Below, one piece after another: positions 1-45,764 of a stretch of DNA of 47,617 bases. The position numbers were made by a program, and so were the translations under genes. Each line of letters starts with the position of its first letter. The first letter of the stretch is position 1. The stretch lies in assembly GCA_965178125.1 (NCBI GenBank), contig OZ237742.1:1364001-1411617 (forward strand). Direction: 5' to 3'. Under the pieces are notes generated by a model. That model was not told the origin of the DNA. It did not search any database and saw only the letters and a list, made by a program, of their open reading frames with translations. This DNA comes from Bilabrum cf. latius. Its lineage: Eukaryota.

Positions 1-744
1 CTGGAAGACCCCCGAGGGGAGGGAGCGGCTGGCCCACAGCACGGTGCACGGGGCATCCTGATCCTGATCCTGATCCTGATCCTGATCCTGATCCAGAACT
101 GCTGGTTGCGGGGCACTGGGGGCTGCATCCGGGTCCTGGAATAGCGGGGTGATGAGACCTGAAGGCTTGTTCGGCCCTGTACCGACAGCTTCCATCGGCA
201 GTGCCTTTGGCTCGCTCCCAAGTCCAGGCAGCACCCGCGCTCCGGCCCGTCGCTCCCTCGCGGCTGCGCGCTGGCGACTGCGGCTGCCGGCACCGATCTA
301 GCCTGAAGACTTCAACGATCCGTTTGTCTACGCATTGTGAGCAGCCATCATCGCAGGGTGAGGCTTGAGACCAGCCTGAGCGAACGTCATGTGAACCACG
401 CGAGCCGCTGGTCCCACCACGCAGTATGAACCCGACGGCGTTCCAGTAGCCGAGGGAGGTTTCGCACGCGCATCAATAAGAGCGAATGCGGGCACAGGAG
501 CAAAAGTGATCAGGCCGGAGCAGCGCATAGCAAGCTACTTGGTGTAACAAGACTTGTGCTGACTCTCGATGCTTGCTGCGCAGGCTTCAGCGCGAGATGG
601 CTCCCGACTGGGGCGCGTGTCGCCATCGATATGGTCCATGGGTATAACTGCAGCGCCAAACGCAACAACTGGCTCCTGCTTGCTCTCTTCAGACCGGCCC
701 AAAGACTGCCGTGCACCACGCAGCACTGACGAAACAGAGCTCAT
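1..744 (-). CDS. 5' part of a gene running off the window; possibly tubulin-tyrosine-ligase-like (TTLL) family
   Basis: ORFs 535..780 and 328..528 share one frame. It continues to base 1 through three TAGs (537-535, 330-328, 300-298) with no TAA/TGA. The segment YCVVGPAARVVHMTFAQAGLKPH...CTVLWASRSLPSGVFQ resembles the region just before the QxxNHFP motif of TTLL proteins (family call tentative). The (GATCCT)n at ~55-94 encodes a Ser-Gly linker. Start Met uncertain. Confidence 0.5.
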
Positions 745-1000
745 TCGGGACGCTGGGACTGCCTCGAGTTGTTCACGCAAAAAGTATGCGCATGGCGACA
801 GTCCTGACTAGAATATGACAGTTTGTGGCTAGCAATTCGAAGAGGTGCGATTTCAACCGTCATTAGCAGGTGTGTGATGAGTGACTATAGGTGGTGCTTC
901 CGATTGGCGGAAAGACGCCTATTCTCAACAGTAGCACACATTGTTGCCTCGGTTAACAACATAATCATATTTTTCTACTATTTTGGACGCTTGAAGAGAA

Positions 1001-2779
1001 ATGGCGAAGCAGTTGAACTGGGATGACTTGGGTAAGACCAGCTTTACTACTCAAGGGCCGTGGCAAGCTTGCGTTTGAACCATGAGCCCCTACAGATACC
1101 CCCATCCCTTCTTTACCTCGCAGATAAAAACAAGTTTTATGTGTACAGTCCAATGGTTTTCTTCATGGTCCGCTTGGTCAACCACCCTGGTGAGACTTGT
1201 CACGATGAGCACATGGTCCGCCTCCAAGTATAGCTTCCGTACGTTGGCGTCCATCTGAACCCGAGCACGAACACAGTGAGGAATTTTAACGATTAACGTA
1301 CTTCATTTCGCAGCTACATTGGTAAAGACGCGACTGCAGATGCAGAAAGAACGCGTAGCTGGGGGTCTAGGTGCTAGGTAGTACCGGGGCTCGTGGCACG
1401 CGGTTTAGTCGATCGTGAGAGAGGAGGGATTTCGAGGTCTTTGGAAAGGTTTCGGGACGAACTCGCTTAACCTGGCAGTAGGACAGGTGTACATTACAAT
1501 CTTCGAATACCTGAAGACCCCGCGGGTGTTCGGCAGCAGCGTACCGGAAGAAGCTCGCACTGCGATGGCTGCGTGCACAGCCGTGATGACGGCGTAGACA
1601 CTGGCAAATCCCATTGATATCCTTGCCCAGAGACTCATGGTAGAGCGTGGGGATGGCCGCAGCACCGCAGGAAATGCTCAGGGCGCTGCAGGGGAGTCTG
1701 CCAGCAAGACGGCGGGCAAGGGTGCTGGTGCCTCGGCCTCCAGCAGCACGCGCGGCATGCACACGATGGCAGGAGAGTGGGCGGGCAATTCAAGGCAACA
1801 AGGTGCCTCTGTACCTCGGGGATACAGCCGGGCAGGGGCTCTTGCTGCACGGGCCGCTGGATCTGCAGGGGTAAGCACGGGCCGGTGGGCCTGGTCCGCG
1901 GCTGTCTCTGGCGGTGTGACGAGTGCGAGGAGAGCTGCCAGGCGCGCGGCGGGGAGCTGGCGCCGATGGCTGTCCAACGGAGAGCCGGGGGAGGGCGCGA
2001 AGGGGACGGGCCCGCGAGCCGCTGGCTCTGGGGCTTCCGGTGCAGGCGTTAGGACTGGGGCAGGTGTGGGGGTGGGGGCTGGGTCTGGGGCTGCTGGGGC
2101 GTCGTCAGGCGGAACTATGTCGGTCCCGTCCTCTGTGGCGTCTTCCAGCCGTCTGCGGGCGGCGGAGCGGTTCCCGGGTGCGTTGGGGAACAGGGGTGGG
2201 TTGCTTGCGCCCTTTGTGCTGGCCTCGTCGGTGTGGCGGGCCGAGGGCATGCGGGGGTTCTACAGGGGGTACTTCGCCGCTATCGTGCAGAATGCGCCTA
2301 GCTCTGCGCTCTGGTGGTCCTCGTACGGGTACTACAGGAAAGCCATGCTCAGGGGCATGGGCTCGGCAGGGGCAGGGGGAGGGGGCAAGAAGGCTGCGGC
2401 GGGTGCAGCGCAGAGCAAACCGGGGCAGGTGCCGGGGCACAACAAGTTCGCCGCAGATGCTGGGCCATCACCTGGTCCCAAGGCAGCCGAAGGCAGCGAG
2501 TTTGGTGGTTGGCGGGAACGCGTGTGCGAGTCTGTTTCCGGGGCCATGGCTGGCACCACCGTGGCGATTCTGGGCAACCCGCTGGACGTGATCAGGACTC
2601 GGGTGCAGGTGGAAGGGGGCACCGTGTCGGGTGTGACGAGGGAGATGCTGGCCCAGGAGGGCGTCTCGGCGCTGGGAAAGGGCATCACAGCGAGGATATG
2701 GATGCTGGCGCCCAACGGAGCCGTGATCATGACTGCCTATGAGCTCATCAAGCGACTCTCGGCCAAAGACGCGGAGTGA
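1001..2779 (+). CDS. Mitochondrial carrier, SLC25A44-like; 3 exons (1001-1031, 1124-1189, 1314-2779), 520 aa
   Basis: Spliced product MAKQLNWDDLDKNKFY...NHPATLVKTRLQ...EGFRGLWKGF...NPIDILAQRL...EGMRGFYRGY...NPLDVIRTRVQ has three carrier-repeat signatures. Introns GTAAG..CAG (1032-1123) and GTGAG..CAG (1190-1313) keep the frame. In-frame TAG at 1379, 1406 and 1595; ends TGA. Confidence 0.9.
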
Positions 2780-2937
2780 AGGAGCGATCGAGCGGGCACG
2801 TGGTCCAAGCGAATGATTGGATAGCATGACGTGGTGTGCGAGGCAAGAATGAACAGAAGCACTGAACCTGGATCAACACAATTCACATTTTGTTCACGGC
2901 AAGAAGGTTGGCCCACCCCCCTCACGCCACGGGTCCC

Positions 2938-4233
2938 TCACGCCTTGCCACCGGCCGCCTGTGCCGCCACCGCCGCAGCTGCCTTCTCGATCTCGGCCTG
3001 GTCACCCAGGTACCTCCCGCTGAGCGTGCCCTTGGGCTCCCCGTTGCGGCGCAGGGGCAGCATGTCGGGCCCCAGCTCGTACACGAGAGGCACGCCCGTG
3101 GGGATGTTGAGCTCCGTGATGTCCTCGTCGCTGATCGCGTCCAGGTGCTTGACGAGTGCCCTGAGGGAGTTGCCGTGCGCCGCGATGAGGAGCCGCTTCC
3201 CGCTGCGGATGTGCTGCTCCACGTTGTCCTCCCACCACGGGATCACCCGCTTCACCGTGTCCTTGAGGCTCTCGCTGCGGGGGATGTCCCCGGGGGCCAG
3301 CTGGGCATACCTGGGGTCATTCCCCGAAAAGTGGGGGTGCGACTCGTCCAGCTCCGGGGGAGGGATGTCGTAGCTGCGGCGCCAGATCTTGACCTGGTCC
3401 GCCCCGTGCTTGGCCGCGGTCTCTGCCTTGTCCAGCCCTGCGAGAGACCCGTAGTGCCTCTCGTTGAGGTGCCAGTCCTTGCGCACCGGGATCCACAGCT
3501 GGCCCATCTCCTCGAGGGCGGTGTTGCACGTCATGATGGCCCTGGACAGCACCGAGGTGAAGGCCTCGTCGAACTCGAGGCCTTCCTCCTTCATCAGCTG
3601 GCCCGCCTGCCTGGCCTCGGCCTTGCCTGCATAGGGGGGAGCACGGGACAGGCGAGAGCGTGGCGAGATAGGGAGTGCGCAGATATTGCTGTACCGATAA
3701 TGCTGCGGTCCTAGATCCAAGCAGTTGTGTCGCTGATACTAGCGGCAATTTGCGGGAAGCGGCATGGCTGGTGGGCTGCCCACCACTGCTCGATCGGCTG
3801 GCTTTGGTCACTGGGCGGTCTTCGCCCACTCGCACAATGCAGCAAACTTTCTTCGGGCTGCTGTTCGCCGCTCAGCAAGATACAGCACGCGCACGCCCGA
3901 AGTTGCCCAGAACCATGTCGCATCAGCAACCTGTCACTCCGTGGATTCGAAGATCCAAGCCTTCCTCACCTTGTTCAGTTAGCTTCACATCCACCCAGCC
4001 AGTGAATCTGTTTTGCAAGTTCCATTCGCTCTATCTGCACGAAACATATTGAAACGTCAGTCCATTCTAAGTGTTCAGCGAAGCAGCGCTAGCATCTGGA
4101 TGTGACTGGCAGGTGATTTCTCATGACGCGCACCTCACCCGTGCCGCATCAAGACCAAAGTGTGGCTGCTTGCGAATCTCCGCGCTCCCTATGATCCAAA
4201 CAAGCGACGAGATAGCCGTCCAACTCGCATCAT
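2938..4233 (-). CDS. gpmA: 2,3-bisphosphoglycerate-dependent phosphoglycerate mutase with N-terminal mitochondrial presequence; exons 4233-4139, 4034-3970, 3626-2938 (282 aa)
   Basis: Spliced sequence [28 protein letters not shown]...FTSVLSRA...WHLNERHYG...[10 protein letters not shown]...SESLKDT...AHGNSLR...[13 protein letters not shown] matches all dPGM motifs. Introns 4138-4035 and 3969-3627 are GTGAG..CAG. TAG at 4191-4189 and 4033-4031; ends TGA. Confidence 0.95.
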
Positions 4234-4500: not shown

Positions 4501-5763
4501 ATGTCGGGTACACAGGCCGCACATTAGCTTGTCCTCGAGCGCTGGTATGGTGGCCGAATTGGAGTCGACACAGAAGAAACGGGGCCATTTGAGGCCAAAA
4601 GTGGAGGATCGCTCTCACGCTTTATCGAAAAGGAGTCTCTGGAAAAGTCAGTTCCGATGGTGATTCGGCAGTTCGGACGCAGCTTTCCGGACGGTTGTCC
4701 AGACTGGGCAGAGATCCGGGCTATGTGCGGCAGGAACCAGGAGGCAACGGTCGCTGTATCAAGAGGTGTTGAGGAGCATGACGGGCCAACCACTAAAGTT
4801 CGAGTACCAGTGCCGCTGGCCGACTTTGTTGATGGCATCCTTGCTGGAAACCCAGAAGCTGCAGTGGTGCAAGCACAGTCCAGCTCTGGTGACGACGAGA
4901 TGACATCATAGGCAGGCGGCTGCTCATCTGAACCCTAGGTTGATGGCTCCTCGCAAAAGCCCCGCGGTGACGGCGTCCTGTATGCCAAGCAGTTCGACAT
5001 CGTGTCCCTGCTGCCCGAGCTCAAGGCGCGCCTGCCCAGCTGGAGCGAGCCGCTGGCACTGGCCCCTGCCACGACCGGGCTCGGTGGGGACCGCATTAAG
5101 GAGGTTAGTTGCAAGGGTCTCTTCAGTCCCTGGCGCTGCCTGCACACAGTGTGCGGGTGGATCGCCCCCGCGGGTGCAGTCACCGGCGCTCACACGGACG
5201 ACGAGCACAACGTCCTGGTGGTGCTCGCGGGGGAGAAGGCAGTCACCCTGGTGCCGCCTGCGGACGCGAGACTGTGCTACCCGAACAGCAAGTATGACAG
5301 CGGCACGGTGTGCTTCGACGCCAACATCGAGTCCCCCGACCTGGGGGCACACCCATCGGTGGCCCGGGCCAGGAGACAGACGGTCCTGCTGCGGGCGGGT
5401 GACGCCCTGGTGCTGCCGCAGGGGTGGGTGCACCAGGTGAGGAGCCCCGTTGCATCTGCCAGCCTCAACGTGTTCGCAAGCACTGTGGGCGAGGCGGTCA
5501 CTCACGGGGCGGGCAGGATGCTGGCGGAGTGGATGCACGGCATTGGGGTGTACCGGTGGGGGCACTGCGTGTGCCATGCAGCGCCAGATTGCAAAGAGTG
5601 CGGTTGGGAGGATGACGAGTGCGGCAGGGAGGTCAAGGACAGGGCCCGGGTGGCCAGGGGCTCGCTGCTGGCGCTGGCGGGGGCGGCGGTTGGCGTCGGG
5701 CTCGCGGGCGCGTTTGCGTCTCGAATGGCCGCGGTTGGATCGGGATGTCTCGGACTGAGATGA
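4501..5763 (+). CDS. JmjC/cupin-8 2-oxoglutarate Fe(II) oxygenase (420 aa), hydrophobic C-terminus
   Basis: One frame from ATG 4501 to TGA 5763 through TAG at 4525, 4909 and 4936. Motifs PMVIR, LYAKQFDI..LPEL, WI...TGAHTD (HxD) and LRAGDALVLPQGWVHQV (distal His). Confidence 0.85.
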
Positions 5764-5915: not shown

Positions 5916-8900
5916 ATGGCGGCAGCGTCTGCAGCCTCTACCGTCGACGGTTCATGGGTAGAAATATTTGCTAGCTCAGATGTGGCCGGAGTTGATTTCG
6001 ATTCTGACGGAAAGATCCTGGGTTGTGGTGGAAAGGAGGACGACCGATGCGGTGTCCGCTACTATAAGTCTACGGTGAAGGCATCGGAAGAGCTTTACGA
6101 TGCAGACTTCTTGCGTGGACCATCGCAAACCTTTGAATTGGTTCACTATGGCAAGCATGGATTCGGACGCAACGAGGCCGCGATCTTCGTTGGATGCGGG
6201 GACGAAGTGCACCGCCTCAACCCAATCACAATGTCACCGAAAGGAATGGTGCTCAAGGCCCAGCTCAAGATTTAGAGCATCCATACGTGTCCTTCCAAAG
6301 CATGGGTGTGAGTTCGCAGATTTCTCACTAGGCAACCTACGTCTCTGGATCGCGTCCCGCATTCAAACCAGAGCGCGTCGCGTTTCATCCCCACAAGGCA
6401 GACCGATGCGTTCCTTTGCTTCCAAGTAGGCCATATGGCATGATACAGATGATTTCCCTGTTTCGCTTGCTACTTCATTCGCAGGGTCGTGGCCAGTGAG
6501 GACGGCGACCTCGCTTTCTTGTCCACGGCGAACCACGAGGTCCTCTTCCGGGAGCGCCGCGCCCACGGAGGAGCAGGACTGCGCCACGCCCAGTTCTCCC
6601 CGTGTGGAAACTACGCTGCGTCCCTGGACTGCGAGGGCAAGGTCAGGTTTTGGTGCACCGCGCGGCTTCCCGCAGACGGCAAGCCAGCGGCAGGCACGGA
6701 CATGGGAGACGCCGAGTGGCGGGACTCGGTCCGCCCCATGCCCCTTGGGCCCGATGTGCGCGCCCTGGAAGATATGCCCGCCGGCGACAAGGCCCCCGCG
6801 GCTGCTCTTAGGGGCCAGGGGGAGGAGGTGCCCGGCCTGCGGCTGAGCTGGCACCCGTCCTCCCTGGCAGTGGCTGTGCCGGGGGCCAGGCACGTGCTGC
6901 TGGTCAGGAGGCCCAGGAGGGTGGGGCTGCCTGCGGGGAGCCCGCCCTCGCAGGAAGAAGCTGCCACCGGAGTGCTGCGTGCCGCTCGTGCTGCCAAAGC
7001 GGCCGTGCACAGGTGCCCCACTGCAGCCATGTCGCTGGCGTGGTCTCCCGGAGGCAGGCTGCTGGCGTGCGCCACGCTGGGAGGAAAGGTGAGACGCACT
7101 GCGGAGAGGATCCACTCGTCGTGCTGCAGCACGCTGCACCCCGTTTGCATCGCCCCTCCTGTGCCCTTCCTCACCGCACTGCACTGCACTGCCCCCCCCC
7201 TACAGCCACCCCCTGTGCCACACCCGCAGCTCATGTACCTCAAGGCACCCGCCGACGAGGACTCCACGTGGGCCCAGTGGCGGGCCCCCGATGCCTCCTT
7301 CCAGGCCCCTGAGAAAGCCCCTGTCTTCGCCCCCACGGGGCCGCTGGCTGACCTGGGATCAGCGGTGTGCGAGCTCAGGTGGAGCGAGGCGGGGACCCAG
7401 CTGGCCGCAGCCAACAGCGGAGGCTAGCTCCTTGTGGATGCTCCCCCTATTGTGGACGCGGCTGAGGGTGCCCTGGGTGAGGCCAAGGTCGCTGAGAAAC
7501 CCGGCGCTGTTGCCGAGGGCTCGGCAGCGAGTGCGGATGGGGCCAAGCAGGAGGAGGAGGATGAGGAGAAAGCCCCAGAGGGCAATCCAGCCGAAAAGGA
7601 AGCGAAGGACGGTAAGGACGAGGAGGACCAGTCGCCCTCGCTGAGCCCCGAGGAGCTGGCAGATCTGGAGGCGATGCAGGCCATGGTGGACGGGGAAACG
7701 GAGGAGGAGAACAACGAGGATGCTCAGCAGGGACAGGCCAGAGAGGGATCGGCCCAGGTCGACTCGAGCAAGGAAGAGGGCTCGGAGGAAGGGGAGGCCA
7801 AGGAGGAGTCTGCCGAGGTGGTATCGCTGGCGATGCTGGCCGAGGAGGAGGACTCGGACGAGGACGAGGAGCTCGCGGGGGCGCGCAACATGGGCAAGCG
7901 GAGGAAGGGCAGGAAGGCGAGGAGGGGCGCGGGGCTGCTGGACGATGAGGCGGCAGAGGGCAGCGACGGGGAAGAGGGGGGCAGGGGCGAGGACGAGGAC
8001 GAGGACGGGGAGGGCAAGCGTGTGGGTGGGATCAACCGCATGCGTGAGATCCTGGAGCGCCAGGAGCAGCTGGCTCGGCTGGTGGAGGAGTCCGAGGAGG
8101 CCAGGGAGCGCGAGGACAGGGCGGCCAGGACGGACAAGAGGGGCGAGGGGGAGAAAGACGCGATGGCGGAGGCCATGGTGGGTGCGGAGGAGGGGGCTGA
8201 TGCGGCGGATGGAAGCACGTAGGGAGTGGGGATCGGGCAGCAGGCCATGGACGGCGAGGGGCCGCACGACGATGACGAGGAGGAGGACGTAGACGAACAC
8301 GAGGGCGCGGATGGGGGCGTGGACCATGCGCAGGCCGGCGGGATGATGATGATGCAGGGGCCCATCGCCGCCGCCCCCGTCTCTCACCCCGTGGTGCAGC
8401 CGGGCGCAGCGCCGCCCACCCGGAGAGACCCGACCCGGTCCTACCTCTGCTGGAACCCCTTCGGCACCGTGGTGCGCAGGGAGGCGCACGACGCTGACGA
8501 GGTGCGCGTGGACATCGAGTTCGCCGCGCTGGCGGGGCAAGGGGGGGACAGGGACGGGGCGGGCTCAGCCGATGCAGGTGGGCTCGGGAGGGCAGCTAGT
8601 GCGGGTCGGGTGCAGATCAACGAGAACGCTGCGGGGGTGACCTGCGCGACGGTCGGCGCTGCGGGCGCTCTGCTGTGCTGTCCTGAGATCGAGGAGGACG
8701 GGGAGGAGGACGAGGAGGTGCGCAAGAGGAAGAAGGAGGCGCGGAAGAGGGGCGAGAAGTACGTGGGAGGGGAGGCCGCCACTGTGCAGTTCGTGCCCGT
8801 GAAGAGGTGGGACCTGGGAGGGGGGGCGGCGGGCCAGGGGCAGTGGGTGCTGCCGCTGCCCCGCGGGGAGGACGCGCTGGCCTGTGCCGTGGGGAGGGAG

Positions 8901-10976
8901 TGGTGCGCGGTGGCGACGAGCCAGAGGATGCTGCGAGTGTTCGGCCCTTCTGGAACCCAGGAGGCCCCCCTGATGCTCCCAGGGCCCGTGGTCTCGATGG
9001 CCGGCAGGGGGCCCCTCCTCCTGGTGGTGTACGCCATGGCCCCTGCCAGCGCGAGGCAGCACCCCTTGGGGTGGCAGCTCATGGCCTGCCCGGACTCGAG
9101 GTCAAGCCAGCTCGGGGGCCTGGCGGGGGTCGGGGGTGCCAGAGCAAGCAGGGGCAGGCAGTCGGGCGCTTCGTCCTCGTCGTCCTCTGCGGCGGGCAGG
9201 GGCGAGGAGGAGGAGCTGCTGCCCCTGGGCGCGCCTGCCGCGGTGGGCGTGGGCGGCACGCCGGGCTTTAAGGGAGTCGGGACTTCGGCCGGAATGCACG
9301 GCGGGCTGGGCGTGGGCACAGTCCCGCGGGTGCTCGCGCATGGCCAGCTGCCACTCCGGCCAGGGGCTAGGCTCGCGTGGGTGGGGGTGACGGCTGAGGG
9401 CGTGGCGTGCGCGCTGGACACTAGGGGGATGCTGACTGCGCTGTCTCCCGGGCACGGCTTCTCCTGGGTGCCCATCCTGGACCTGCCCTCGGACGGGGTG
9501 TGCATGCGCGCCGACGAGACGCCCTTCATGGTGGAAGTGGACGGGCGAGAGGCACAGCTGTACGTGTGCAGGCACGGGGAGAGGAGTCCTCCGCACGTGC
9601 CTCGCCCGCTGCCCATCAACGTGCCCCTGCGCGCCCCCATGGCCGGCATGCGGCCCGCCCTCAAGAAGAACGCCGCCCTCGAGGACATGCCCGTCCCCGC
9701 CTGGCAGCAGGACGCGGATGCGGTGCTGGTGCGCGTCAGGCAGGACGTGAGGAGGTGGTGCGCGGCGTGCGGGCTGCGCATGTCCCTGGGCAAGGGGGAC
9801 GCCCCTGGCGGTGACGTCAGCCGGGTGGCATCCGCCGCGGTGGGCACGTCTGGATGGGCGGCCACCAACCGCCGGGAGATCTTGGCGGCCAGGGGCTCCG
9901 ACAAGGCGGTGCTCAAGCTGCTGATCCAGTCTCTGCAGGGCAAGGGGCCAGGGGCGGCGGGAGGCGCGCTGGGGCAGGCGGGCGGGCCTCCCCGTGCCCT
10001 GGAGCTGGCTCGCAGGCTGCAGCTGCCCAGGTCCATGGAGCTCGCGGCCCGCATCGCGCAGCAAGCCAGCCCCCCGCAGCCCGCGCTGGCCGACCGCATC
10101 GCGCAGCTGGGGAGGGCGAGGGCAGTCGAGCGCCAGCGGGCGGCGGCACACCCGGTGCTGGCACCCTCGAATGCTGGGGTCCAGGCCTCTGCCTCTTCCT
10201 CTTCCTCTGCGGCTGCGGGGGGTGCCAGCACGGAGGAGGCCCGCACGGCGGCTCGCGAGGAGATCCGGGCAGTGGCCCCCAGGCTGGGGGAGAGGGCACA
10301 GCGGTTCGGGGCGGAGGCGGCGCGGGAGGCCATGGCGGGGCTGGAGGAGGCGCTGCTGGCGCGGCTGCGGGCCGAGATTGTAGCGCTGACGGGGACTGGC
10401 AAACCAGCGCTGGGGTCAAAGCGGGTGCGATTTGAGCGGGAGAATGAGGAGAAGGGCGAGAGCGAGATAGAGGGAGTCGCCGCATCGGGTGGGGAAAGCG
10501 CTGTCATGGAGGACGAGGAGGACAAGGCCCAAGTTGATGCGGACGAGCCCAAGTCGAAGAGGGCGAGGGTGCACGAGCAAGACGAGGACAAGGGCGAGGA
10601 AGCAGGGACGCCCCCTCCGGGGCAGCGGGGTGCCTCTGCACCTGGTGGGACCAACTCGGCGGTGAGGAGCGCCGGCGTGTCACCATCGCGCGGCAAGGGC
10701 TAGGGCAAGAGGCGCGGCGCAGGCGGGAGCAACCCGTTCGCTCGCCGTGAAGTGGCATCGCCTCCACGGCGTGGGGGTCTCTCTCAGCTGGTTGCAGGGT
10801 CACCTGCGAGGGAGGCTGACAAAGTGAGCCTCGGGCTGGACGGTTCTCCTGCACGCGGCGGCTCGAAAGCCTCCGAGGAGAGCAACGGAGCGATGCTGAG
10901 CCCGCTTCGCAGGAACAGCACCCTGGCACGCGAGGGCAGGCAGAAGATGAGGCACGACATCGACGCTATGGAATGA
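5916..10976 (+). CDS. WDHD1: Ctf4/And-1 (WDHD1) replisome hub protein; exons 5916-6307, 6485-7088, 7230-10976 (~1580 aa)
   Basis: N-terminal WD40-like repeats (AQFSPCGNYAASLDCEGKVRFW, SLAWSPGGRLLACA), an acidic linker, then a SepB-type domain (VVQPGAAP..RSYLCWNPFGTV; LPRGEDALACAVG.EWCAVATSQRMLRVF; LAWVGVT.EG...LDTRG...WVPILD). Five ORF-track pieces join through two GTGAG..CAG introns and TAG at 6273, 7425, 8220 and 10701; ends TGA. Confidence 0.85.
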
Positions 10977-11072
10977 TTTGAAATGACAACTAGAGCAATG
11001 CGGATTCAGCAGGCGCCTGCCACAGCAAAGTGCAAAACTGGACAAAAATATCGCCCCAGCAAGTGCCAGGGG

Positions 11073-13551
11073 TCATGCAACGATGCCAACCTGGCCAGTC
11101 CCACTAGTGTTGAATCCAGCGCCTTTGGAACGAGAGGGTCCGGCCGTTGATCCAAGCTTGCCACCAAACGCTACTTTCTCCGCCTGCCTGCGGGCTTGCA
11201 TCATGGCATGCACGCCAGATTTAGCTGCCGCCACTCGCGCCCGGCTTGCGTCTGCTGCGGCCACGGCAAGCCGGAAGCGCCCCAGAGCGCCAAACAAGCC
11301 AGCTTGCGCCTGGATGACCGCCCTTTCCTGTCCGAACACACGGAGACCAACGGGCAGCTCACCCAACGACCGCCCTTGCCCTAGGGGAAGTGCCCCAGCC
11401 TGCCCTGTTCCGCTCTTGTCCGAGGCAATTTCGACCCGGAGCCCCCCTCCCTTGCCCCTGCCTGCCTGCTGCCTTCCAATCGCGTGTCGCCGCCCCTTCG
11501 CTCCGGGTGTCACCTAGACAGACCCCGCGCTGCTCTCCCGCTGCACGGTGCTAAGCGCGGACCCAGCGCTGCCACCCCGCTAGAGTGTGCCAAGCGCCGA
11601 ATCTGCGCTGCTGCCCCGCTGCACTGGCGTCATTGGTAGTGCGCTGCTGCTGCTGCTGCTACTGCTGCTGCTCGATTGCTCCCGTATATCAGCCGCTTCT
11701 TCGCCCATTTCCACATGCAAGCCCCCCATGCCAGCCTTGGGCGGTGGAGGCGGCCGGACCGCTGCCCCTGCCACCTGCAGGCCGCGCCCGCCCCTCCCAT
11801 CTATGGGCACCCCCCACCGGTTCCCACCACCTCCCTCTCGCGATTGAGCCCCGCTCGCACCCGACTGGGCCGTACTAGTGTGACCGCCCCACCTCTCGCG
11901 ATACTGGCCCGCTCCTGATGACACGCCACGCGCTGCATCTGGCCGGCTGTGCGAGCCCGTAAGCGCGCCGGCATGGGCCTCGCTTGTTCCCTGCTGCCAA
12001 GTCGTCTGCCCACTGGGCGGTTGCACCACGAGACCTCCTCGGGATGAGGGCTGGAGATGCAGCGCGGGCTGGTCTGAGTCCATCGGTGCACTACCGGTGG
12101 CACCCACGCCAATGGAGGAGCCCCCGGATGCCTGCATGGCGCGGGCTGCAGCTTCCGCCAGTGCTCGCGCGGAGGGGGGCGGTGGAGGCGGCGGCAGAGA
12201 CGGGGCTCCGTATGTTCTACCAGCACCAACACCAGTCGCAACAGCAAAGTGAGGGCTCTAATCGTGGACGCGCGACTTACTCGCCCATGCAGCACCGGCC
12301 CCTGCCCCTGCCCCTGCCCCTGCCCCTGCCCCTGCCCCTGCCCCTGCCCCTGCCCCTGCCCCTGCCCCTGCCCCTGCCCCTGCCCCTGCACCTTGCCTCG
12401 CCCCGGCCTCCGCCCCCACCATTGGCATAGCACCGTAGCCCTCCGACCCCCCTTCCCTCGCTCCCTCCCAACCTCTCGTCGACCCGTCACTCCCACCCTG
12501 TCCCCCGCCCCATTGCTGGCCTGCCCTTTCACCCTCCTGTCCCCCGCCCCATTGCTGGCCTGCCCTTTCACCCTCCTGTCCCCCGCCCCATTGCTGGCCT
12601 GCCCTTTCACCCTCCTGTCCCCCGCCCCACCGCTGGCCTGCCCTTTCACCCTCCTGTCCCCCGCCCCATTGCTGGCCTGCCCTTTCACCCTCCTGTCCCC
12701 CGCCCCATTGCTGGCCTGCCCTTTCACCCTCCTGTCCCCCGCCCCACCGCTGGCCTGCCCTTTCACCCTCCTGCCAATCCCCATGAGACCCCCGGTGGTG
12801 CCCACCAGCCCTCCCGCGGCCCCTGCCTCTGCCACGGCCTCGGCCTATTGCCCTACCGCGCTAGTCGTAGTCTCCCCCCTGCTGCCCTCTCCAGTTGCCC
12901 TTGCCACGAAAATCACGAGACTCAGAAGCAGGTCCGCTCGAAGCGGATGGGGCGCGTCGCCAGTCCACCTAACCCGCGCTGCTAGTGCGGTCCATCGGCG
13001 GCGGTGGCAACACTACCTTGTGACTGGAACCATGCCCTTCCTGTGGTGCCGGCTCAGAATGATTCCGCTCAATCGTAACCCCGGTCCAATTTGCGCTGCT
13101 TGACGAGGAAGCGGCTCCTCGGAAGCTGGCTGGCTTACTCGGAGCTGACTCGCCACGGGAAAGAGCTCCATATGTAGCCGCAGCTTGTGCTTGTGGCGGA
13201 GGCGGTGGAAGATGTGAGCCGTAGGTCATCGGCTGCTGCTGCCTTCCAACTCGAGGTGACTGCGAAAGGAGACAATCAAGGACATTTATGTTCATTTGTA
13301 AATAAAATGTGAGCTGCAGCATTCCAAAGTGCTTCAATTGTGCATCTCACATTAGACGACGCTGCTGCGTAGGGATCAGGCTTTCCAATGCTGCCCCTAC
13401 GCTGCCTACCAGTATGCGATGCTTGATACGGGTTGCCTCTGGCTCCCTATGAGGACCTCTATGCGCTCCCACCTCCGTACTGTCCGCCTCTACTTCCAGA
13501 TGCATACGGACTCCTTGAATCTCTTTGCTTGGGACCTCGTTTTCGTCCCAT
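11073..13551 (-). CDS. Low-complexity Gly/Arg/Ser-rich (RG/RGG) protein; exons 13551-13351 and 13259-11073 (~795 aa)
   Basis: Starts MGRKRGPKQRDS. A phase-0 intron GTGAG..TTTCGCAG lies at 13350-13260. ORFs 12969..13337, 11580..12137 and 11073..11513 share one frame. Seven TAGs in total and no TAA/TGA until the TGA at 11075-11073. Contains GRGRGRGRGR and QEGERAGQQWGGG repeats. Confidence 0.7.
12299..12772. repeat. Coding repeats: (CCCCTG)n at ~12299-12389 and a 39-bp tandem repeat x~7 at ~12497-12772
   Basis: The unit cctgtcccccgccccattgctggcctgccctttcaccct is directly visible. On the minus strand the repeats encode (GA)n and QEGERAGQ(Q/R)WGGG. Confidence 0.9.
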
Positions 13552-24496: not shown

Positions 24497-24704
24497 GATT
24501 GCTGTGGTGCAGAAATTTAGCTTATAGACTCCGAGTCTAAATCGATCGGATGCCCCACCAACAAGTAGACCTGTTATCTGCGGACCAGGCAGCATTTGGC
24601 AAATTCCTAGACTTCAATGATGGATCTTCCCTGCAATGTCTGATAATTGTCAGATCCCTGTCCTTGGGTTGTTATTTGCTACTCACACATACATGCACCA
24701 TGGT

Positions 24705-32945: not shown

Positions 32946-34260
32946 GGCCTGCGCGAAGAAGAAGTGCGGCAGATAGCGCAAGATAGGTTGTGGCTGCGGT
33001 GGGAGGGCGGCACCACATGCAGCTGCCGTGCGCAGACACAGCACTGGACCAACCATTCGATATGGCACCAAGGGGTCCATTCCAATCAGGAAACATGCCA
33101 CTATTCGATGCAACATAGGTTGCAACCGGGCATCTCAAGTTGCAACCGATCGTGTCACACAAGCAAACCAGATTTGCAGTAGCGTGCACTTTCCAGCCAC
33201 CACCAATTGCAGTTGGGAGGGATGCCCTCATTTCAGCTCGGACAAAGGCCACAGTGAGACAACCAGGCATTCGTGTGTACTTAAATAGTAATATTGCATA
33301 CATCTGACAAGGTCGGAAGTCACAAAGCTCGAGCATTGCAACGATCATACGGTCATGTCAGCCGGCGCACCTCGCTCCCAGACAAATCACCAAATTGCGC
33401 CCCGCAGGAAAAGAAAATCGCCGCGGCGCGCGTTGCAAACAAAACGTGAGACAACAATGCAACTATAGACGCGCGGCTGCATGGCAGTTTGCGCGCAGGA
33501 TAGTGCGCGCACAGGGCGAATCCATTCCAGCTGTCCGGCGCACCCAGCACGTTGGGCCAATTTTTGCCATGTTCCCGCGGACAATTTTCAATCGCAGGCT
33601 CCCAAAGTCTATTTTAGACATCATTGAATACAACTGTTCGCTATAATTCTCACGTGAGTTCTTTTTTGTGGGTTTGAAAAATGAGCGTCTCGCGTCCGAC
33701 AGCGGGCCGGCTGCGTGGCCGTCCGGAGCCGTTTTGCGGGGGAGGGGTGTGATGAGTGCACCGTGCGCCGTGCCCCGGTTGGATGGCATGCCTAACTGAA
33801 GCTCATTGGAGTACTATTACCCCTGTGCCATGGTTCCCCGGCCCTGGACCAGGCCTCGTGCACCCAAATTCCGGCCGCCCGGCACCAGCCCTCCAGACGG
33901 GGGTGCGCGCGGCCCCGGGAGGCGACGGGGGCGGGTGCCCGACCATGCAATGTGTTCTTGTGGCCCTTGGGGGCTAAGGCAGCCGCCCCTTGTTCCCTGA
34001 TGATGTGTGTCTGGCTTGCTGCACCGGTGTGGAGGTGCTCGCCGGGTGGGCCCCGCGCTGCGGGGCCTTCCCAGGCTCCTATCCTACAGTGTGCTGCAGG
34101 GTGCACTGCAGGGTGCTGTTAGTGTCTGCTGCATGTATTGTCGCATGTCTGCTACGTTGCTAGTGCCGCGGGAGCGTTCTCGACCCGTCCCGCCAAGCTC
34201 CCCCACTGCCCCCCACTGCCGCCCAACGCACCATCCGCATGTATGGAGTGCTGCGTTCTG

Positions 34261-37926: not shown

Positions 37927-40900
37927 TCATGTCCATTTCTCATCAAACCCCCAGCCTTCTTGCTCAATTGCTGGGATGTGTACCCACCGTGGAGCGGTGC
38001 CAAGAAGAAGGATCTCGATTTCGCCACGTGCCCGTGAAATATCTCGCTGGCCCATACCACGCAATCCAGCGCCGGGCACTGATGGCGCCATGTTCTGGTC
38101 ACCACGAATTCCTCTAGGTCGTGACAGTGCTGAAGTCGGCGGCTGCGTGATGGCGCTGGAGGCTGCTCCCAGCGGCGGCTGCAACTCGGCAAGGCCGTCA
38201 CTACCAGCCTTGTCGGTAGGCATCTGCAGCAATCGACCGATTGGATCATCATCGCTGCCAGCCCCACTGGATGCTGATGCCGAGGCAGGCCTCAATGGTT
38301 CCGATGCCCTGCTGCCGATCGCAGTTCGGTTGAATGCGTTGGCCTCCGTTCGTTCTGCGGGTCTCGAGCTCGCATGCTCGCCGGATTGCCGCATGTGCCT
38401 TGATCGCTTCTATTGCCCTTCTTCCTCATCGCTCTCATGGCCGGGCCAAATATGTCCCAACGAATCTAGGCTATGCTCAAGAGCAGAAGTAGCGGTGGAT
38501 GCCTGTGACAGGATGCTGTCGCCATCGTCAAGAGGACGAGCACGTGTGTACATCCGAAGAACCTAGCTGCAGTGTTGCGATTGAGGTATGTGATACGCAC
38601 GCCAAAGCTCGTGCCTCTGGTCGGCACTCACGCCTGCTTCTCCTGCTTCTGCACGTGCTCGGGCCACCATGGATCGGACATCTCCCACAGCTTTCAAGCT
38701 TTGAGCTAGTGACCTGCGTACCAGCCCCTTGCCTGCTGCCTTGTAGTACGGGGCTTCTGATAGTGCAGGCACTACTGATGGACTACAGGGCAGGTTAATG
38801 CAGAGACCAGCGCCGTAGTAGCCTACATCGATGACACGACGCAGTGACCCATCCTACCTGTTCAGCGCCCCTCTGAAGACTTGAGGACAATCAAAGCCTG
38901 GGTTCATCCACTTGAAATGATCTAGCACGACAGACTCCACGTGCTGGGCAATGGTAACGGCAGGCTGGGCGGTTCTTGGTGGTGGCGAGACGTCGAGCAC
39001 TGTCTAAAGTCCAGATCGTGCAATCGGCGGCTGGCCTCCCCTTGGTCGCTTCGTTCCAGGCAGAGGGGGCCGCTGCAACCGATCGGGCAGCAATACTGCA
39101 GACCCAATCACACACGCAGGTAAAAGCCACACTGATACCATACGACGAAACTGCTCGTCTGCGAGGGATGGCTGTCCGTTCTGCCTGGTGCCTACGACAG
39201 CACGAAGAATTGAAGCGACGTACGAGGTCCGGACAGATGACTCGGCAGCAAGCTTGCGTTGCATGGTCCAGGATAACGTTGTTATCAACGCATAGCCTAG
39301 CTTGGAGGCCCTAGCAGATGTCGTGGTCGCCAAGTCACCCCTGAGATTCCCAGCGTTCTTAGAGCCGCGCCACATTGCGCCTGCATCTGGCCTGGGACTG
39401 AAGGCAATCTTGGATATGCACATCTGCAAGCCAACTAGTATTGCACTCCTTGAGCACCTGAGCCGAGATAGGAGCAGCCCGTACAGTGCTACAGCTAGGC
39501 TGCCCCTTGCTAGCATTCCTTTCCGTGTGCCACTGCGAAGGTGGAGCTTTGCCAGGTGCATTTGCGCAAGGTAAAGCTTCCGTAGCTGCTGCTCCATGAC
39601 TACAGCGTGGGACATGTCTGTAGACTTGGCAAAGTGCAACAATAGCCTGGACCGCTCAGGCAGTCGAGACAAAATGTCAGCCTGCACGTCAGCCCGTACC
39701 ATAGCACGAAAGCCGGTGATTCCGTTGTTCACACCGCTGATGCCCAACTGGAAGTGCTCGTCACCTTGCGTTGATACGAGTCCAGAAAGACCATACCTCT
39801 CGGAGATCCGAGAGATCTGCCATGTCATGCCCAAGCCTTCTGCCAACGCACACAGGCTCCAAGACGTTACCATAACCTCACAGACGGCAAGCACAGTCCA
39901 CGAGTTCAAGAACGTACCGTTGCACCCCCCAGCCCTGACTGACTACACCGCATTTCCGATTTGATCAATGATGGCGGATGCAACCGCCATTACATTAGAC
40001 TGCTCAGGCATACTGCTAGCAGATTGCAAACAGTCACGGACGCTGGACCACTCCAGTGTCGAAGGCCCTAAGTTTCGAAGAACTGGCCTAGTAGCGGGAA
40101 GCCACGTTACGGCAATTTGCTCTGCAACAACCTGAGACCATGCATCTGTCCGTAGAGCCACGCAGCCTTCCATACAGCATCTGCTCATCGATGCAGCTAG
40201 CGCCCACATCGCCGATCGCTGATACGTGGGAATCCTGTCTGCACCACAGACAGCTGCTACGAGCAGTCTTTCGATTCTGCAAAGTGCCCGACGGAGTGTA
40301 TACCTGAGCATTTCCAAGTGATTCATGATGGATGTCTTCTTCACGACCTCCACGAAGCATTGCGAGAATGGAGCCACTGACAAATGCTCGATAGTGTCGG
40401 CGCGATGTTCACTCCGTAACTGTCCGTACTGCAGTTCAGCTGGTAGCACTACGGAGGCCAGCATCAGACTCATGGTTGACGCGGGTACATCGAACTCGCC
40501 CCTGGTCGATCCAAGGATTCCTGCAGTTAGCCTTGCATAGCTTTGAGTGAATGCCGTTTGCAGCCCAAGGTATATCCGCCGGCGGGTTGGCAGTGCATCC
40601 AGAGCTGCCTAGGCTCGAATCATGCTTGCAGTTCTCGAACTCAAAGTCGATGGAGCATGTGCACCCGATTCAGCGAAGTGGCGAACCTTAGAGAGAACTC
40701 GTCGGCGAAACTGGTCATATGCAGAGTCGTGCGCCCCTGGACTAGGCTGAAATGCTCGGAATGCTCCAGGCTGGTACAAATGCAGCTGAGATGACAGCAT
40801 GCAGCCAAGTGACATAAATGAAGGCATGCCGTAGTCGTTGCCAGTGTCATTCTCGGCTAAAACACGTCGGTGCACGGAAAGCACGTCACCCCAGGATAGC

Positions 40901-43900
40901 GTAGCTGGAAGCATTCCTTGGAAGGTTCCGGCGTACTCTCCAACGGACGCCAGCGCCGCATATGGACGAATTCGCTCTTGCATCACGGCATACCGTGCGT
41001 GTTCGAGCCGTGTTCCGTGTATGACTCCTCGCAGCAACTGATCCCGACAGCTATGCATGTACTGAACTGTTGCTGGGTTCGGTACAGCAACTGACACTGA
41101 GCGTTCACCACACACCTCAAAGCCTACGCCAAAACTGCAGTACATGGCCATATCCGCATCCTGTTGCGGCCACAGCTGTCCGTACGGATGAATTATGGCT
41201 GCGAGATCTCTCATACCTCGGCGTTGATGACGTCCAGTCCAAGCAGGTGCTCGCGCCGCGCCGCGGTACAGCTCTTCCCGAGCACTGCGTGTCAGTGTTT
41301 TCCTGCTCACCTTCCTGTTTGTAGCGCCTGACGCCGATCGCTTGCCATCTCCTGTTGGACCAAACCATTCACCTCTGCGGCCTCTGGCAAACTCCTCATC
41401 GCTCTCATCCATTGCGATCTCCCGAGCACGTTCTTCTTCTGCCTGCTGGGCAGCCAAGTCTTCATGAGCTTTGCGAAGCTGTCCCTGTGCTGCCTGTTGC
41501 AAGAGAGACATAGGATTGCATGCTTTGCAGCCCACTCGCTAGGCGTAGAACACGGAGCACCTGGCTATCTGTCTCATCAGCAGTATCATGAGGAAGCAGT
41601 TGTAGTGTGATACTAAGTGCAGATGATCAAGTAAAGAGTCGTGACTCAAAGACCACTCGTAGGAGCTGCTGTGCTATGCTTCATCATCCTCCACGCCACG
41701 TTGCTTAGCGAAGTCGTCGTCCTCATCCACGTCCACGTCGGTGTCGTCTGAATCGCTCTGCGCAGCAGCACCACCGCTTATTCCCACGCCTTCATTCTGC
41801 TGAGCCTCGTCAGAATCAGAGTCAGAGTCACTCAACTAGTCAACGGCTGGGTAGCCAAGCCACCGTACCCAATGAAATGCGCACGAAAGCAACCGGGATG
41901 GGCTTCTGTGCAGGGTGTGAGAGCCAGGCCAGAATCTACTTGTCTGTGGACCAGGTCCACTCCCAGCGTGTGCGAGCGACGAATGGTATCCACCGGCTTG
42001 GCCTCCACCACGTTGGACACGTACCACTAGCTCTGGACCTAGCCAGTCGAGCCTGCTGGCAGCAGCCGTGAGCCCGCAGCCGAAGACGTACAGCACACAG
42101 CTTCGGATTACATCCACATGGGAGCCCTGGGTCCAGAAGCCTTCATGCATACTCATTTCTACAACACCCTCAGTATCAAGCGTTTGCTGCAAGGACTGAG
42201 ACGGAGGTTCGAACGAGTCTATCAGGTCACGGCAAAGATCAAGCAATCCACTAGGTACAAGAATAGATACCGTAGCAGCACCAACATCGAAAAGTTGAAC
42301 GTGGATGTCAGCAGCGAGTCCGCGCAGTATACGAAGCGTTGGCAATTTCGACGATTGATCGTTTGCGTTTTCTGCTTGCGTGCTGACAGCCCTACTCCAC
42401 AAGGTTCCAGAATGCGGCACCACTGAAGCCCACCCTTCCCTTGCAGCCTTGTCGACATCACGATGGAACTATCGGGTGCACTCCTACTCAATTAGTTTGC
42501 TATACTTGGTAACATCAGACAAGGCTCCGGCAGCCAACACCCGGATGCTTGAGCCACCAAGTCCATTCGGACACTTCTGCTGCAGATCGGTCACCTTGGA
42601 TCGTAAGCTATCAATCTGCTCTTGGTCGCAACGACGCTCAGCCCACAGCATCGCAGTTTGCTAGTCTTTGAAAACGTCATCCCCGTCATCAAGGAATGCT
42701 GTCCATGATATGCGCATTGATCCGCCGGCAGGCGGCCGCTGTGCGTGCGGGGCGCGAACTACCACGCCAGTTGAGGGTGATTGAGACAAGCTGGTATACG
42801 ACGGAAGCAGCGAATCTGAGTCATGTACACCTAGAACGCCATCTGTGATCCAGTCCAGCAGTGCATGGTCCGATCCATCAAGCCCCAGTGGGCTTGCCAA
42901 CGTGTGAGGCAGAAAGTGGTTCGAAGTCTCGTCTGCACTGGATCCATTGAGGTCTGCGACAGCTCCAAGAACAGTGAACCCATCTAAATCAAATGCAGAA
43001 TCGCTGTGACAAGACAGCGGTACGTTTCTGGAACCTGGTGCAGACTTGAACGCTCTATATATCGCAGGCTGGTCCGGAATTGTGCTGTCCATTGATCTTC
43101 GCGGAGAGGCCGAGCTTGACAGGCCTCGGCTTGCACTCGGAGTGACGGGCTAGCTGGATGTTCGACTCTCTTTGACAGCGACTTTCTTCCTTGCTGCGGC
43201 ACGAGATCCTTGCCTTCGGACGGCGGGCAATGGAGCGAACCCAAGGCACATGCCTGCCAAGAAGTCCAGGGGGGATGACAGGTGCTGTTGAGGTCCAGAC
43301 TCCGTTTCTGGTTGGGACATCTGATCGAGCGAGCTGCCAGTGGCCTAGCTGGCACCATGAGAACTACTGCTGGGGCTGCTTGCGGCGCCTGACGACTGTC
43401 GACGGCGGCTTGGCGAGCTGCCAGTGGCCTAGCTGGCACCACGAGAACTACTGCTGGGGCTGCTTGCGGCGCCTGACGACTGTCGACGGCGGCTTGGCGA
43501 GCTGCCAGTGGCCTAGCTGGCACCACGAGAACTACTGCTGTGGCTGCTTGCGGCGCCTGACGACTGTCGACGGCGGCTTGGCGAGCTGCCAGTGGCCTAG
43601 CTGGCACCACGAGAACTACTGCTGGGGCTGCTTGCGGCGCCTGACGACTGTCGACGGCGGCTTGGCGAGCTGCCAGTGGCCTAGCTGGCACCACGAGAAC
43701 TACTGCTGGGGCTGCTTGCGGCGCCTGACGACTGTCGACGGCGGCTTGGCGAGCTGCCAGTGGCCTAGCTGGCACCACGAGAACTACTGCTGTGGCTGCT
43801 TGCGGCGCCTGACGACTGTCGACGGCGGCTTGGCGAGCTGCCAGTGGCCTAGCTGGCACCACGAGAACTACTGCTGGGGCTGCTTGCGCCTCGTGACGAT

Positions 43901-44605
43901 CGTGCACGAGTAGCCGTTTCAGGAAGATCGAATCCCCGCATCTCACTGTGTGCTCCTGACATCTCTGCTCGGGCAGCGAGAGCAGCTTGGGCAGGCAGAT
44001 ATCCAGTTGGCGCGTACTAGCAGCAATCAACCAGCGATACGTATGTATGCAGATCTGACTCCTTGATCAAGTCGTCAATTAATTGTTTGTGAAATATTTC
44101 TGCATCAGCGCTGGGTGTATCGTAGACCGTGAGAAGATCGGCCAGCATGCCATTTTCGATGACATCGCTTGAGACTCCAAGTTCTCGAAGGCACTCCTAA
44201 ATTTCTTCGACTTCGATGCCATCCATCTGCGATATAATAAACTGAAGTTCAATATACTGCGGTTGCTGCTGAGATGTACTCCTATTATCCCAACTGTAGC
44301 TCTGCCTTACTTCAGCTGGCGGATTCGGCTGCTGGGGATCGAAAGTGCGGATCATCTCTAATTTTTCTTCGGATATCTGCGTAACAATGCAACATAAGTA
44401 TGTATTGAGCTGTCTGCGGCGGATAGCAAATCAATACTGCCCATATACTCCACATAGAACTCACTGGAACGTGCTACCAAAACAGAGCTCGACGATTCAT
44501 TGCTCGCTGCAATCTTTTGAGTACTTTGTGCATAGATTGCATCTAGCGTGTATCATCTAAGACTTTACATGCATCGTCAATGGAACACAAGGTTTCGTCA
44601 GACAT
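37927..44605 (-). CDS. Giant hypothetical protein (~2,170 aa) visible only with UAG read as sense; predicted exons 44605-44465, 44376-44311, 44226-37927
   Basis: ORFs 42661..43092, 41836..42423, 40609..41535, 39943..40473, 39004..39909, 38563..38772 and 37927..38394 all share one frame. Scanning the gaps found only TAG (~22 in 6.3 kb) and no TAA/TGA until 37929-37927. The 5' exons are joined by GTGAG..CAG and GTAAG..CAG introns. No known domain recognised; further 3' exons are not excluded. Confidence 0.8.
43329..43887. repeat. 84-bp coding tandem repeat, ~6.7 copies
   Basis: gcgagctgccagtgg starts at 43329, 43413, 43497, 43581, 43665, 43749 and 43833. It encodes GAS*ATGSSPSRRRQSSGAASS(P/H)SSSSR in the giant ORF frame, with one TAG per unit. 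Confidence 0.95.
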
Positions 44606-44816
44606 CTTTAGGCCGGTTCTGGCGCAAGCAATACTCAACGGAATATTGTGCGCGTCCCCCTCGTGGGGGGCGAGTGCCACCAGTGGGGGGTGCGTGCGGC
44701 GCCGCGCTCGACGGCGGAACACAGTATCTCAAACTGCAAGTGGTCTCGAACATCAAGATTTTTTTGTTTGCTTGCTGGCATTTTGTTTCTCTTCTGCCAG
44801 GCAGTGTGAAAAATAT

Positions 44817-45764
44817 ATGTCAGACCATGCATCACCGTGGGCATTGCTTGGATTGAAGCCTGTAGACTTCGCAACGGAAAGTCTCGCAATCCGCCGAGGC
44901 TTGTGTATCGCAGCTTGCGGCATATCGGTTGAAACCGTGCGGTGCATCTTTTAGGATGGTGCCTATGTATCTGCGCGATAGCGTACATCACTTCATAGTG
45001 TAATGCAGCGTATTTGTGCGACAGATGACGGCAAAGTGCTGCGTGTCGACCCAAGCTTCTTGCTTGCGGAAACAGGCCAAAGACACTTGCGTTATGCTAT
45101 CAATAGTATTAAAGAGAAGTCTGACGACGCAATCAGACGTGCCATGATGAAACTGGCTCCACAGAATGGGTTGGCGTTGCATGGAACCGGCAAGCACGCA
45201 CCAAGCTCGTCGAAGCACGTCGAAAAGATGGCATGTGCTACTGCAGCTGAAGACGACACTGCAAATACTCAAAAGGGCTCATGCCTGAGATCATCTGCCT
45301 CTGGGTGTGCAAGATCGGAATCGAAAGGCAATGTTGGCTCAGGCTCCAGCCAGTAGCACCGGCGTGCACGGCGGGGCTAGTCCAAGGTCCACGGCCAGAA
45401 GATGCCGACTCAAGCCCAAGTATACTCGTGGCAAGAGGCAGTACTGCATCTGCGAACGCTCTGTGACGCATGCGAGCAGAAGGCTCACCTGACCGGAGCG
45501 GAAGCTCGCAGCTTGGTCAGATTGGCTAGCAGCAGCATCGAACCAGCTCTCGGGCGTCTAATGCAACTGGCGCGCGCAGACAAGTCTAAGAGGTCTGTGC
45601 CACTTAAGCGGACTGCTACAGCGAGAACGAGCCTATCGCGTACACCCGTCGAGTTGCCCAAAAGGAGGAGAGGGGAGAAAAGGAAATTGCTCGCTGGGGA
45701 TGCGACGCCATCGAAAAGGTGTAGGAGCATCCCTGGTGCAGTTTCGTTTCTTTCAGGGAAGTAA
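44817..45764 (+). CDS. Hypothetical basic protein of cassette D (315 aa), divergent from the giant ORF
   Basis: ORFs 44580..44954, 45003..45356 and 45402..45764 share one frame, linked by four TAGs. Likely start MSDHASPW; ends TAA. NLS-like PKRRRGEKRK near the C-terminus. Confidence 0.65.

Follow-up and report, generated by a model that had tools for sequence, protein, structure and literature searches.

What does the codon UAG specify in the nuclear genes at one end of a chromosome filed under the name Bilabrum cf. latius? The stretch that raises this question (assembly GCA_965178125.1, contig OZ237742.1, positions 1,364,001 to 1,411,617 of the forward strand) is 47,617 nucleotides long, is referred to here as the window, and is numbered from its first letter. 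It is eukaryotic nuclear DNA at a chromosome end, with about 51-73% G+C per 2-kb interval, and it has spliceosomal GT..AG introns, the joints of which are found in assembled contigs from two sequencing runs. TAG triplets lie in frame in its genes, and a reading of the letters alone, called here the original prediction, took UAG alone to have become a sense codon while UAA and UGA remained stops. The present analysis bears out that proposal and adds the amino acid. UAG lies in frame in expressed, spliced and conserved genes and corresponds there to glutamine, and it is very probable that the nuclear genes of this organism, and those of one or more related species, use UAG as a standard glutamine codon, with termination by UGA (mostly) and UAA. 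Since UAG is read as glutamine, and UAA and UGA are found at gene ends and never in frame, the code equals NCBI table 15.

Reading frames and gene ends

Thirteen gene models, eight of them given an identity by Pfam and PDB matches, comprise 9009 codons in the window, and these include 48 in-frame TAG and neither a TAA nor a TGA, just as the original prediction had held for the interior of genes. The open reading frames (ORFs) are bounded by TAA or TGA, so that the absence of these two triplets is partly a matter of construction. In their two remaining frames (18018 positions) these stretches contain 46 TAA, 306 TGA and 120 TAG; the 352 TAA and TGA among them predict about 176 in an unconstrained reading frame, and none occurs in frame. 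TAG is similarly frequent in frame (48/9009, 0.53%) and out of frame (120/18018, 0.67%). The most extreme example is an ORF of 2142 codons at 37927-44355 (minus strand): it holds 22 TAG in frame with neither TAA nor TGA, and its two remaining frames together hold 50 TAG, 17 TAA and 98 TGA. ORF length under alternative sets of stop codons was also tried as a test and was rejected: reading through TGA yields 61 ORFs of at least 300 amino acids, versus 50 for TAG, because the antisense frames of GC-rich genes are open. The case is carried by homology, RNA and comparison with a relative, and not by ORF length.

Eleven of the thirteen window models end in TGA and two in TAA (the gene for the mitochondrial ribosomal protein uS11m and the ORF at 44577-45764), in keeping with the original prediction that every gene end is TGA or TAA. 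In the case of a mitochondrial carrier and of an EHD-type ATPase, the C-terminal residue matches the end of the orthologues and is followed by TGA.

The chromosomal part of the window contains 21 TAG in six supported genes (the carrier with 3, a JmjC gene with 3, Ctf4 with 3, the 11073-13259 minus-strand gene with 5, uS11m with 1 and a CCT-motif gene with 6), and up to nine more fall in two unsupported ORFs, at 1-780 on the minus strand (3) and at 16203-17681 on the minus strand (6, or 4 in an ORF on the opposite strand). These are fewer than the 'about 36' first counted for this part. The subtelomeric genes have 27 (22, 4 and 1), or 29 if a stop-to-stop ORF from 44409 is used, which matches the 'about 29' given earlier for these cassette genes. 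TAG is scarce where G+C at third codon positions (GC3) is high, with none in EHD (GC3 0.85) or in the cofactor-dependent phosphoglycerate mutase gene (dPGM; GC3 0.93), and is most frequent in the subtelomeric genes of low GC3.

TAG codons in transcripts

Contigs from four runs of four studies (X4, X5, X6 and X8) were compared with positions 1-20000 of the window; X4 and X5 contribute DNA contigs, X4 being the likely source of the sequence and X5 an independent run of low depth, with depth in 23 of 30 bins. Where they cover this region, the contigs differ from it at one position (3401 G>T) and have no insertions or deletions. The sole variant in these 20 kb lies inside a dPGM exon, and is carried by contigs of X4 (as a minor form) and X5.

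Intron-skipping contigs occur in X6 and X8 and not in X4 or X5. The introns concerned, which have GT..AG or CT..AC ends, are 1031-1122, 1189-1312, 3626-3968, 4035-4138, 13260-13350, 18482-18577, 18768-18881 or 18768-18974, and 19086-19208. The X6 and X8 contigs that skip introns therefore derive from spliced RNA, an origin read from intron skipping alone (none of the runs is recorded as RNA, and X6 was classed as 'probably DNA' by a tool). The original prediction had proposed looking for TAG in transcripts, and the TAG codons at 12971, 12863, 19282 and 19774 are unchanged in the spliced contigs of both X6 and X8, with no CAG or CAA in their place. TAG is likewise unchanged at 4525, 4909 and 4936 in unspliced contigs of both runs and at 10701 in X6; over the JmjC gene, the X6 and X8 contigs cover 4401-5836 and 4404-5838, respectively, without a difference. 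For these eight sites, editing, base-call error and location in an intron are thus excluded.

TAG lies inside conserved domains of the carrier, Cupin_8/JmjC and Ctf4 genes (as delimited by Pfam) and of uS11 (by PDB). The claim that housekeeping genes stay open downstream of TAG holds for Ctf4, uS11m and the carrier and fails for dPGM, where the TAG upstream of the body of the gene (about 3739-3741, minus strand) falls within intron 3626-3968, as delimited by the spliced contigs, and the last exon has no TAG.

The amino acid assigned to UAG

The identity of the amino acid is given most directly by a related locus, L001, a JGI metagenome contig locus of 12265 bp and 54.5% G+C that was the single match in a scan with the EHD protein; the scan of genome contigs for EHD relatives found none. 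L001 is syntenic with window positions 9.7-21 kb, from the 3' end of Ctf4 through the 11073-13259 minus-strand gene, EHD, uS11m and a Tctex-1-like gene to the CCT-motif gene, with a DNA identity of 66-83%. Its six gene models (2711 codons) contain 34 TAG in frame, no TAA and no TGA, and all five complete gene ends are TGA. UAG makes up 34/132 glutamine codons in L001 (about 26%) and 48/429 in the window (about 11%).

Codon-level alignment of the two loci yielded 37 positions with TAG in either one, and the top class was defined by identity of at least 10 of the 12 flanking residues. In this class the partner of TAG is a glutamine codon in eight pairs of eight (six CAG and two CAA), seven of them with the TAG in L001 and one with the TAG in the window. 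TAG in L001 stands opposite window CAG 9975 and CAA 10062 in Ctf4, CAG 13881, 14421 and 14565 in EHD, CAG 15864 in uS11m, and CAA 18301 in the Tctex-1-like gene, where 12 of 12 flanking residues are identical; in the reverse direction, window TAG 15717 in uS11m stands opposite CAG in L001. The column that holds L001 TAG 4750 is glutamine in 119 of 120 EHD homologues, and is glutamine as well in P0001, the EHD of a close relative. The column of a second L001 EHD TAG is mixed, with glutamate in 49, glutamine in 33 and methionine in 26 of the 120.

Glutamine is also indicated by sites of the window's own genes. A full HMMER search of 1.84 billion representatives gave 141 carrier homologues covering the region in question, and when these are ranked by identity, the column of TAG 1595 is glutamine in 10/10, 18/20, 31/40 and 52/141. 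The two nearest orthologues have glutamine at 1595, arginine at 1406 and alanine at 1379, and P0126, an 88%-identical carrier fragment from a close relative, has glutamine at 1595 with identical flanks. In the 11073-13259 minus-strand gene, the units of a 39-bp internal repeat (11508-11624) start GTG CAG CGG, CTC TAG CGG and GTG CAG CGG, so that TAG 11582 occupies the place of CAG; this was the only informative match when paralogous contexts of 52 TAG sites were sought within the window.

P0001, P0121, P0122 and P0126 are database proteins from a close relative. P0001 is 86% identical to the window EHD and begins at window Met65, downstream of the glutamine codon 13881 that is TAG in L001. P0121 and P0122, the only two fragments obtained among 8000 scored candidates in a search for shorter homologues of the 2142-codon ORF, belong to its orthologue and have identities of 83% and 85%. 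The last residue of P0121 immediately precedes the window TAG at residue 840 of that ORF, and P0122 ends opposite window L1238. All four proteins (P0001, P0121, P0122 and P0126) span only part of the window genes, as expected if they had been cut at in-frame stops, with only the end of P0121 falling at a window TAG. At least three related taxa or strains seem to exist, and the code change is seen directly in two of them.

Alternative readings of the TAG codons

If UAA and UAG both specified glutamine, as in NCBI table 6 of the ciliate and ulvophyte type, UGA would be the sole stop and UAA would merely be rare in a GC-rich genome. TAA does stand at only 2 of 18 gene ends, one of them lacking homology support, and in the two species the homology-supported genes seldom use CAA (23 codons), so that the ratio of TAG to CAG leads one to expect only about three in-frame TAA there. 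What makes this reading improbable is the end of uS11m, where the stop after the conserved C-terminus ...KARRL is TAA in the window and, at the matching position, TGA in L001, together with the lack of a single in-frame TAA in 9009 and 2711 codons of the two loci, despite 109 and 30 CAA and 48 and 34 TAG. UAG might instead be ambiguous, being glutamine within genes and a terminator near the 3' ends of mRNAs, as in Condylostoma or karyorelict ciliates. Few gene ends are available on which to judge this (13 in the window and 5 in L001), but within this small sample TAG ends none of the 18, and in the carrier, EHD and uS11m a TGA or TAA stands right at the conserved C-terminus; ambiguity is, if anything, slightly less credible than a shared glutamine meaning of UAA and UAG. 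The idea that the TAGs are untranslated, being errors of sequencing, targets of editing, parts of introns or damage to pseudogenes of a decaying subtelomere, draws on the intronic TAG of dPGM and on several TAG-rich ORFs without a known family. It can be set aside almost entirely, given that contigs of four studies match the window in the parts that they cover and spliced transcript contigs retain TAG, that decay would have scattered TAA and TGA as well (none is seen where about 176 are expected), and that these genes likewise stay open in a second species, which has TAGs of its own at glutamine positions.

The reading of UAG as glutamine, with UAA and UGA as stops, has to be weighed against several observations that do not favour it. 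Among the aligned pairs, one with 8 of 12 flanking residues identical sets a window TTC (phenylalanine) against TAG in L001 (1902), and the other 28 pairs, from frames that are poorly aligned, of low complexity or doubtful, have mixed residues, with glutamine in 4 of 28; one of these four is Ctf4 TAG 10701 of the window, opposite CAG in L001. The column of L001 TAG 4210 is serine in 102 of 120 EHD homologues, with glutamine in the window. The carrier column of TAG 1406 is arginine in 7/10 and 51/141 homologues and glutamine in 9/141, P0126 also has arginine at this site, and the column of TAG 1379 is variable (A, H, L, K). Window TAG 15717 of uS11m aligns with alanine in bacterial uS11. The window's own code is backed directly by three good sites and one moderate site, the other seven good sites being TAGs of the relative. 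Support for UAA as a stop, which consists of one conserved C-terminus, the end of one unsupported ORF and the absence of in-frame TAA, is thinner than that for UGA.

Genes of the chromosomal part

An SLC25A44-like mitochondrial carrier (Pfam Mito_carr, E=2.7e-40) has its last exon at 1313..2779 on the plus strand, with TAG at 1379, 1406 and 1595 and a TGA stop, and introns 1031-1122 and 1189-1312 are removed upstream of it in spliced contigs. The last exon of dPGM, recognised from its translation, lies at 2938..3625 on the minus strand, has no TAG and ends in TGA; joints 3625/3969 and 4034/4139, with CT..AC ends, are present in both X6 and X8 and define introns 3626-3968 and 4035-4138. The JmjC/Cupin_8 gene at 4501..5763 on the plus strand (Pfam Cupin_8, E=2.2e-24; TAG 4525, 4909 and 4936; stop TGA) has a Cupin_8 match that spans TAG 4909 and 4936, with a JMJD5-like catalytic core downstream, and its PDB matches begin only past the TAG sites. 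The Ctf4/Mcl1 (WDHD1-like) gene follows on the plus strand at 6489..10976 (Pfam Mcl1_mid, E=1.2e-40), with TAG 7425, 8220 and 10701 and a TGA stop. The N-terminal part that contains TAG 7425 had no match in the PDB search, and this site is uninformative.

The exon at 11073..13259 on the minus strand, preceded by intron 13260-13350, belongs to a gene without an assigned function, and has TAG at 12971, 12863, 12260, 11582 and 11516 and a TGA stop. Its orthologue at L001 1669-3618 (minus strand) has 19 TAG in 649 codons, three of them consecutive (...GTQ-TAG-TAG-TAG-RATY...), a density far above that of the window copy (5 in 728 codons). The EHD/RME-1 dynamin-like ATPase, identified by Pfam, occupies 13728..15518 on the plus strand, with no TAG and a TGA stop. 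The uS11m gene, identified by PDB uS11 matches, is found at 15622..16029 on the minus strand, with TAG 15717 and a TAA stop at 15622-15624.

Between uS11m and the next model, the region 16203-17681 has long open frames on both strands, with six TAG on the minus and four on the plus strand, and is covered by X6 and X8 contigs; against L001, the plus-strand frame aligns better (31% over 223 amino acids versus 27% over 66). An exon of a Tctex-1-like dynein light chain, recognised from its translation, lies at 18143..18481 on the minus strand, next to intron 18482-18577, and has no TAG and a TGA stop. The main exon of the CCT-motif gene, at 19209..23082 on the plus strand, has TAG 19282, 19774, 21649, 21820, 21988 and 22795 and a TGA stop, and follows intron 19086-19208. 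The CCT match itself (Pfam, E=5.5e-5) is under the Pfam cut-off. Farther upstream in this gene, the donor at 18767 is joined to two acceptors, 18882 in X8 and 18975 in X6 (introns 18768-18881 and 18768-18974, respectively). An ORF of 347 codons without a Pfam family, at 23552..24595 on the minus strand, has no TAG and ends in TGA.

The subtelomeric part

Six (TTAGGG)n arrays, all in one orientation and from 95 to 1203 bp in length, lie between 24977 and 47301 and separate segments that bear genes. The unit that begins at 24977 has further copies at 27494-29689 (99.2% identity) and 35978-37513 (95%), and the same sequence with a 19-bp direct repeat (AAAGTATCATGTTCCGCAA) follows three of the six arrays. 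This region represents chromosome ends, healed or duplicated, that are stacked on one another, or else an artefact of assembly.

The genes of this part comprise an ORF of 633 codons at 31224..33125 on the minus strand, with one TAG (31427) and a TGA stop, the 2142-codon ORF at 37927..44355 on the minus strand, which ends in TGA and belongs to no Pfam family, and an ORF at 44577..45764 on the plus strand, with four TAG from the first ATG, six in the stop-to-stop frame from 44409, and a TAA stop. Within the 2142-codon ORF, an 84-bp tandem repeat (43329-43899, minus strand) of 6.8 copies that are 98% alike has one TAG per unit (...SRGAS-TAG-ATGSS...), and 7 of the 22 TAGs of this ORF are therefore copies of a single site.

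Immediately after the last, 1.2-kb TTAGGG array, positions 47315-47617 on the plus strand, the last of the window, make up 101 codons for part of a ribosomal protein uL4 of bacterial type (Pfam Ribosomal_L4, E=4.4e-31). In the PDB it is matched best by bacterial L4, starting at about residue 19, so that the N-terminus is missing. The fragment looks like a chimeric join of the chromosome end to bacterial DNA or a truncated gene for an organellar uL4.

The organism and its relatives

The best named matches of the window EHD are from Cafeteria roenbergensis (53% identity over 96% of the query) and Bicosoecida sp. CB-2014 (59% over 66%). A single-gene tree of 33 EHD rows unites the window, L001 and P0001 in a clade with a support of 100 in the Shimodaira-Hasegawa-like approximate likelihood ratio test (SH-aLRT), and this clade is nested in one of 12 rows (SH-aLRT 98) that includes Cafeteria roenbergensis. 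In this one-gene tree, the link to Cafeteria has a support of 80, Bicosoecida sp. falls just outside, and the position of Ectocarpus is not settled. As a working placement from this one gene, the organism would be a stramenopile near the bicosoecids, and the earlier guess of a probable stramenopile fits both the EHD matches and the tree.

At least four studies, whose runs are filed under four different coded organism labels, contain this DNA (window 1200-11000), with depths between about 2 and about 100. The window organism may thus accompany other organisms in culture without having been noticed.

Relation to known codes and significance

Codes in which UAG is glutamine while UAA and UGA are stops are listed in PMC11687900 for the fornicate Iotanema spirale, the ciliate Protocruzia tuzeti and some phyllopharyngean ciliates. 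UAG and UAA are also split in the uncultured rhizarian exLh (leucine), in Scotinosphaera (serine) and in other phyllopharyngeans (leucine) according to the same source, and in the ciliate PL0344, in which UAG is glutamate and UAA lysine (PMC11687900, PMC10553269). UAA and UAG are both glutamine (UAR=Gln, NCBI table 6) in many ciliates, ulvophyte green algae, Hexamita, Streblomastix and Amoeboaphelidium (PMC11687900). The code described here has the same three assignments as that of Iotanema, Protocruzia and the phyllopharyngeans, with UAA and UAG uncoupled, so that a new lineage joins Iotanema and Protocruzia in a code of one kind; it differs from these cases in its setting, by EHD a stramenopile lineage near the bicosoecids, with a GC-rich genome, and in being common to at least one further species, the source of L001. 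With the UAR=Gln codes it has in common the capture of a stop codon by glutamine, presumably through a mutated tRNA-Gln anticodon, whereas UAA here ends uS11m and is never in frame. With the leucine, serine and glutamate variants (exLh and phyllopharyngeans, Scotinosphaera, and PL0344) it shares the uncoupling of UAG from UAA, and differs in that eight of eight well-aligned pairs are glutamine and none leucine, serine or glutamate.

By analogy with other stop-to-glutamine codes, UAG would be read by a tRNA-Gln that arose from tRNA-Gln(CUG) and has CUA as its anticodon, and eRF1 would have lost the recognition of UAG while keeping that of UAA and UGA. New TAG codons may have arisen mainly from CAG by a single C-to-T change, as the six CAG/TAG pairs and the internal repeat suggest. 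Neither the window nor L001 contains a tRNA gene according to ARAGORN, and eRF1 is not encoded in either of them.

The nearest named relative by EHD, Cafeteria roenbergensis, is a GC-rich heterotrophic stramenopile. Its EHD groups with the window clade and is deposited full-length, at 600 amino acids, in the standard code, and literature searches found no report of a code change in this species. The Discussion of PMC11687900 names no stramenopile among nuclear cases in which UAG and UAA are split, and full-text searches, subscription journals and supplementary tables aside, yielded no report of nuclear UAG reassignment in a stramenopile. Since the known UAG-only cases so listed include no stramenopile, an independent origin is likely. 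A slight balance of probability favours a fuller account, in which an undescribed clade of GC-rich heterotrophic stramenopiles near the bicosoecids (made up of the organisms behind the window and L001 and, probably, the source of P0001 and P0126) independently reassigned UAG to glutamine and kept UAA and UGA as stops, as the first nuclear code change in stramenopiles and as a capture in a GC-rich genome, where rarity of UAG is not to be expected.

Nuclear splits of UAG from UAA are few (PMC11687900), and each independent case probes how eRF1 drops one of two codons that are normally read together. A stramenopile case would add a new supergroup lineage to them, and a G+C content of about 60% speaks against simple scenarios of 'codon capture' under AT pressure. 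Gene calling in the standard code breaks the proteins of this organism at every UAG, and annotations and phylogenomic matrices built in that way would be wrong.

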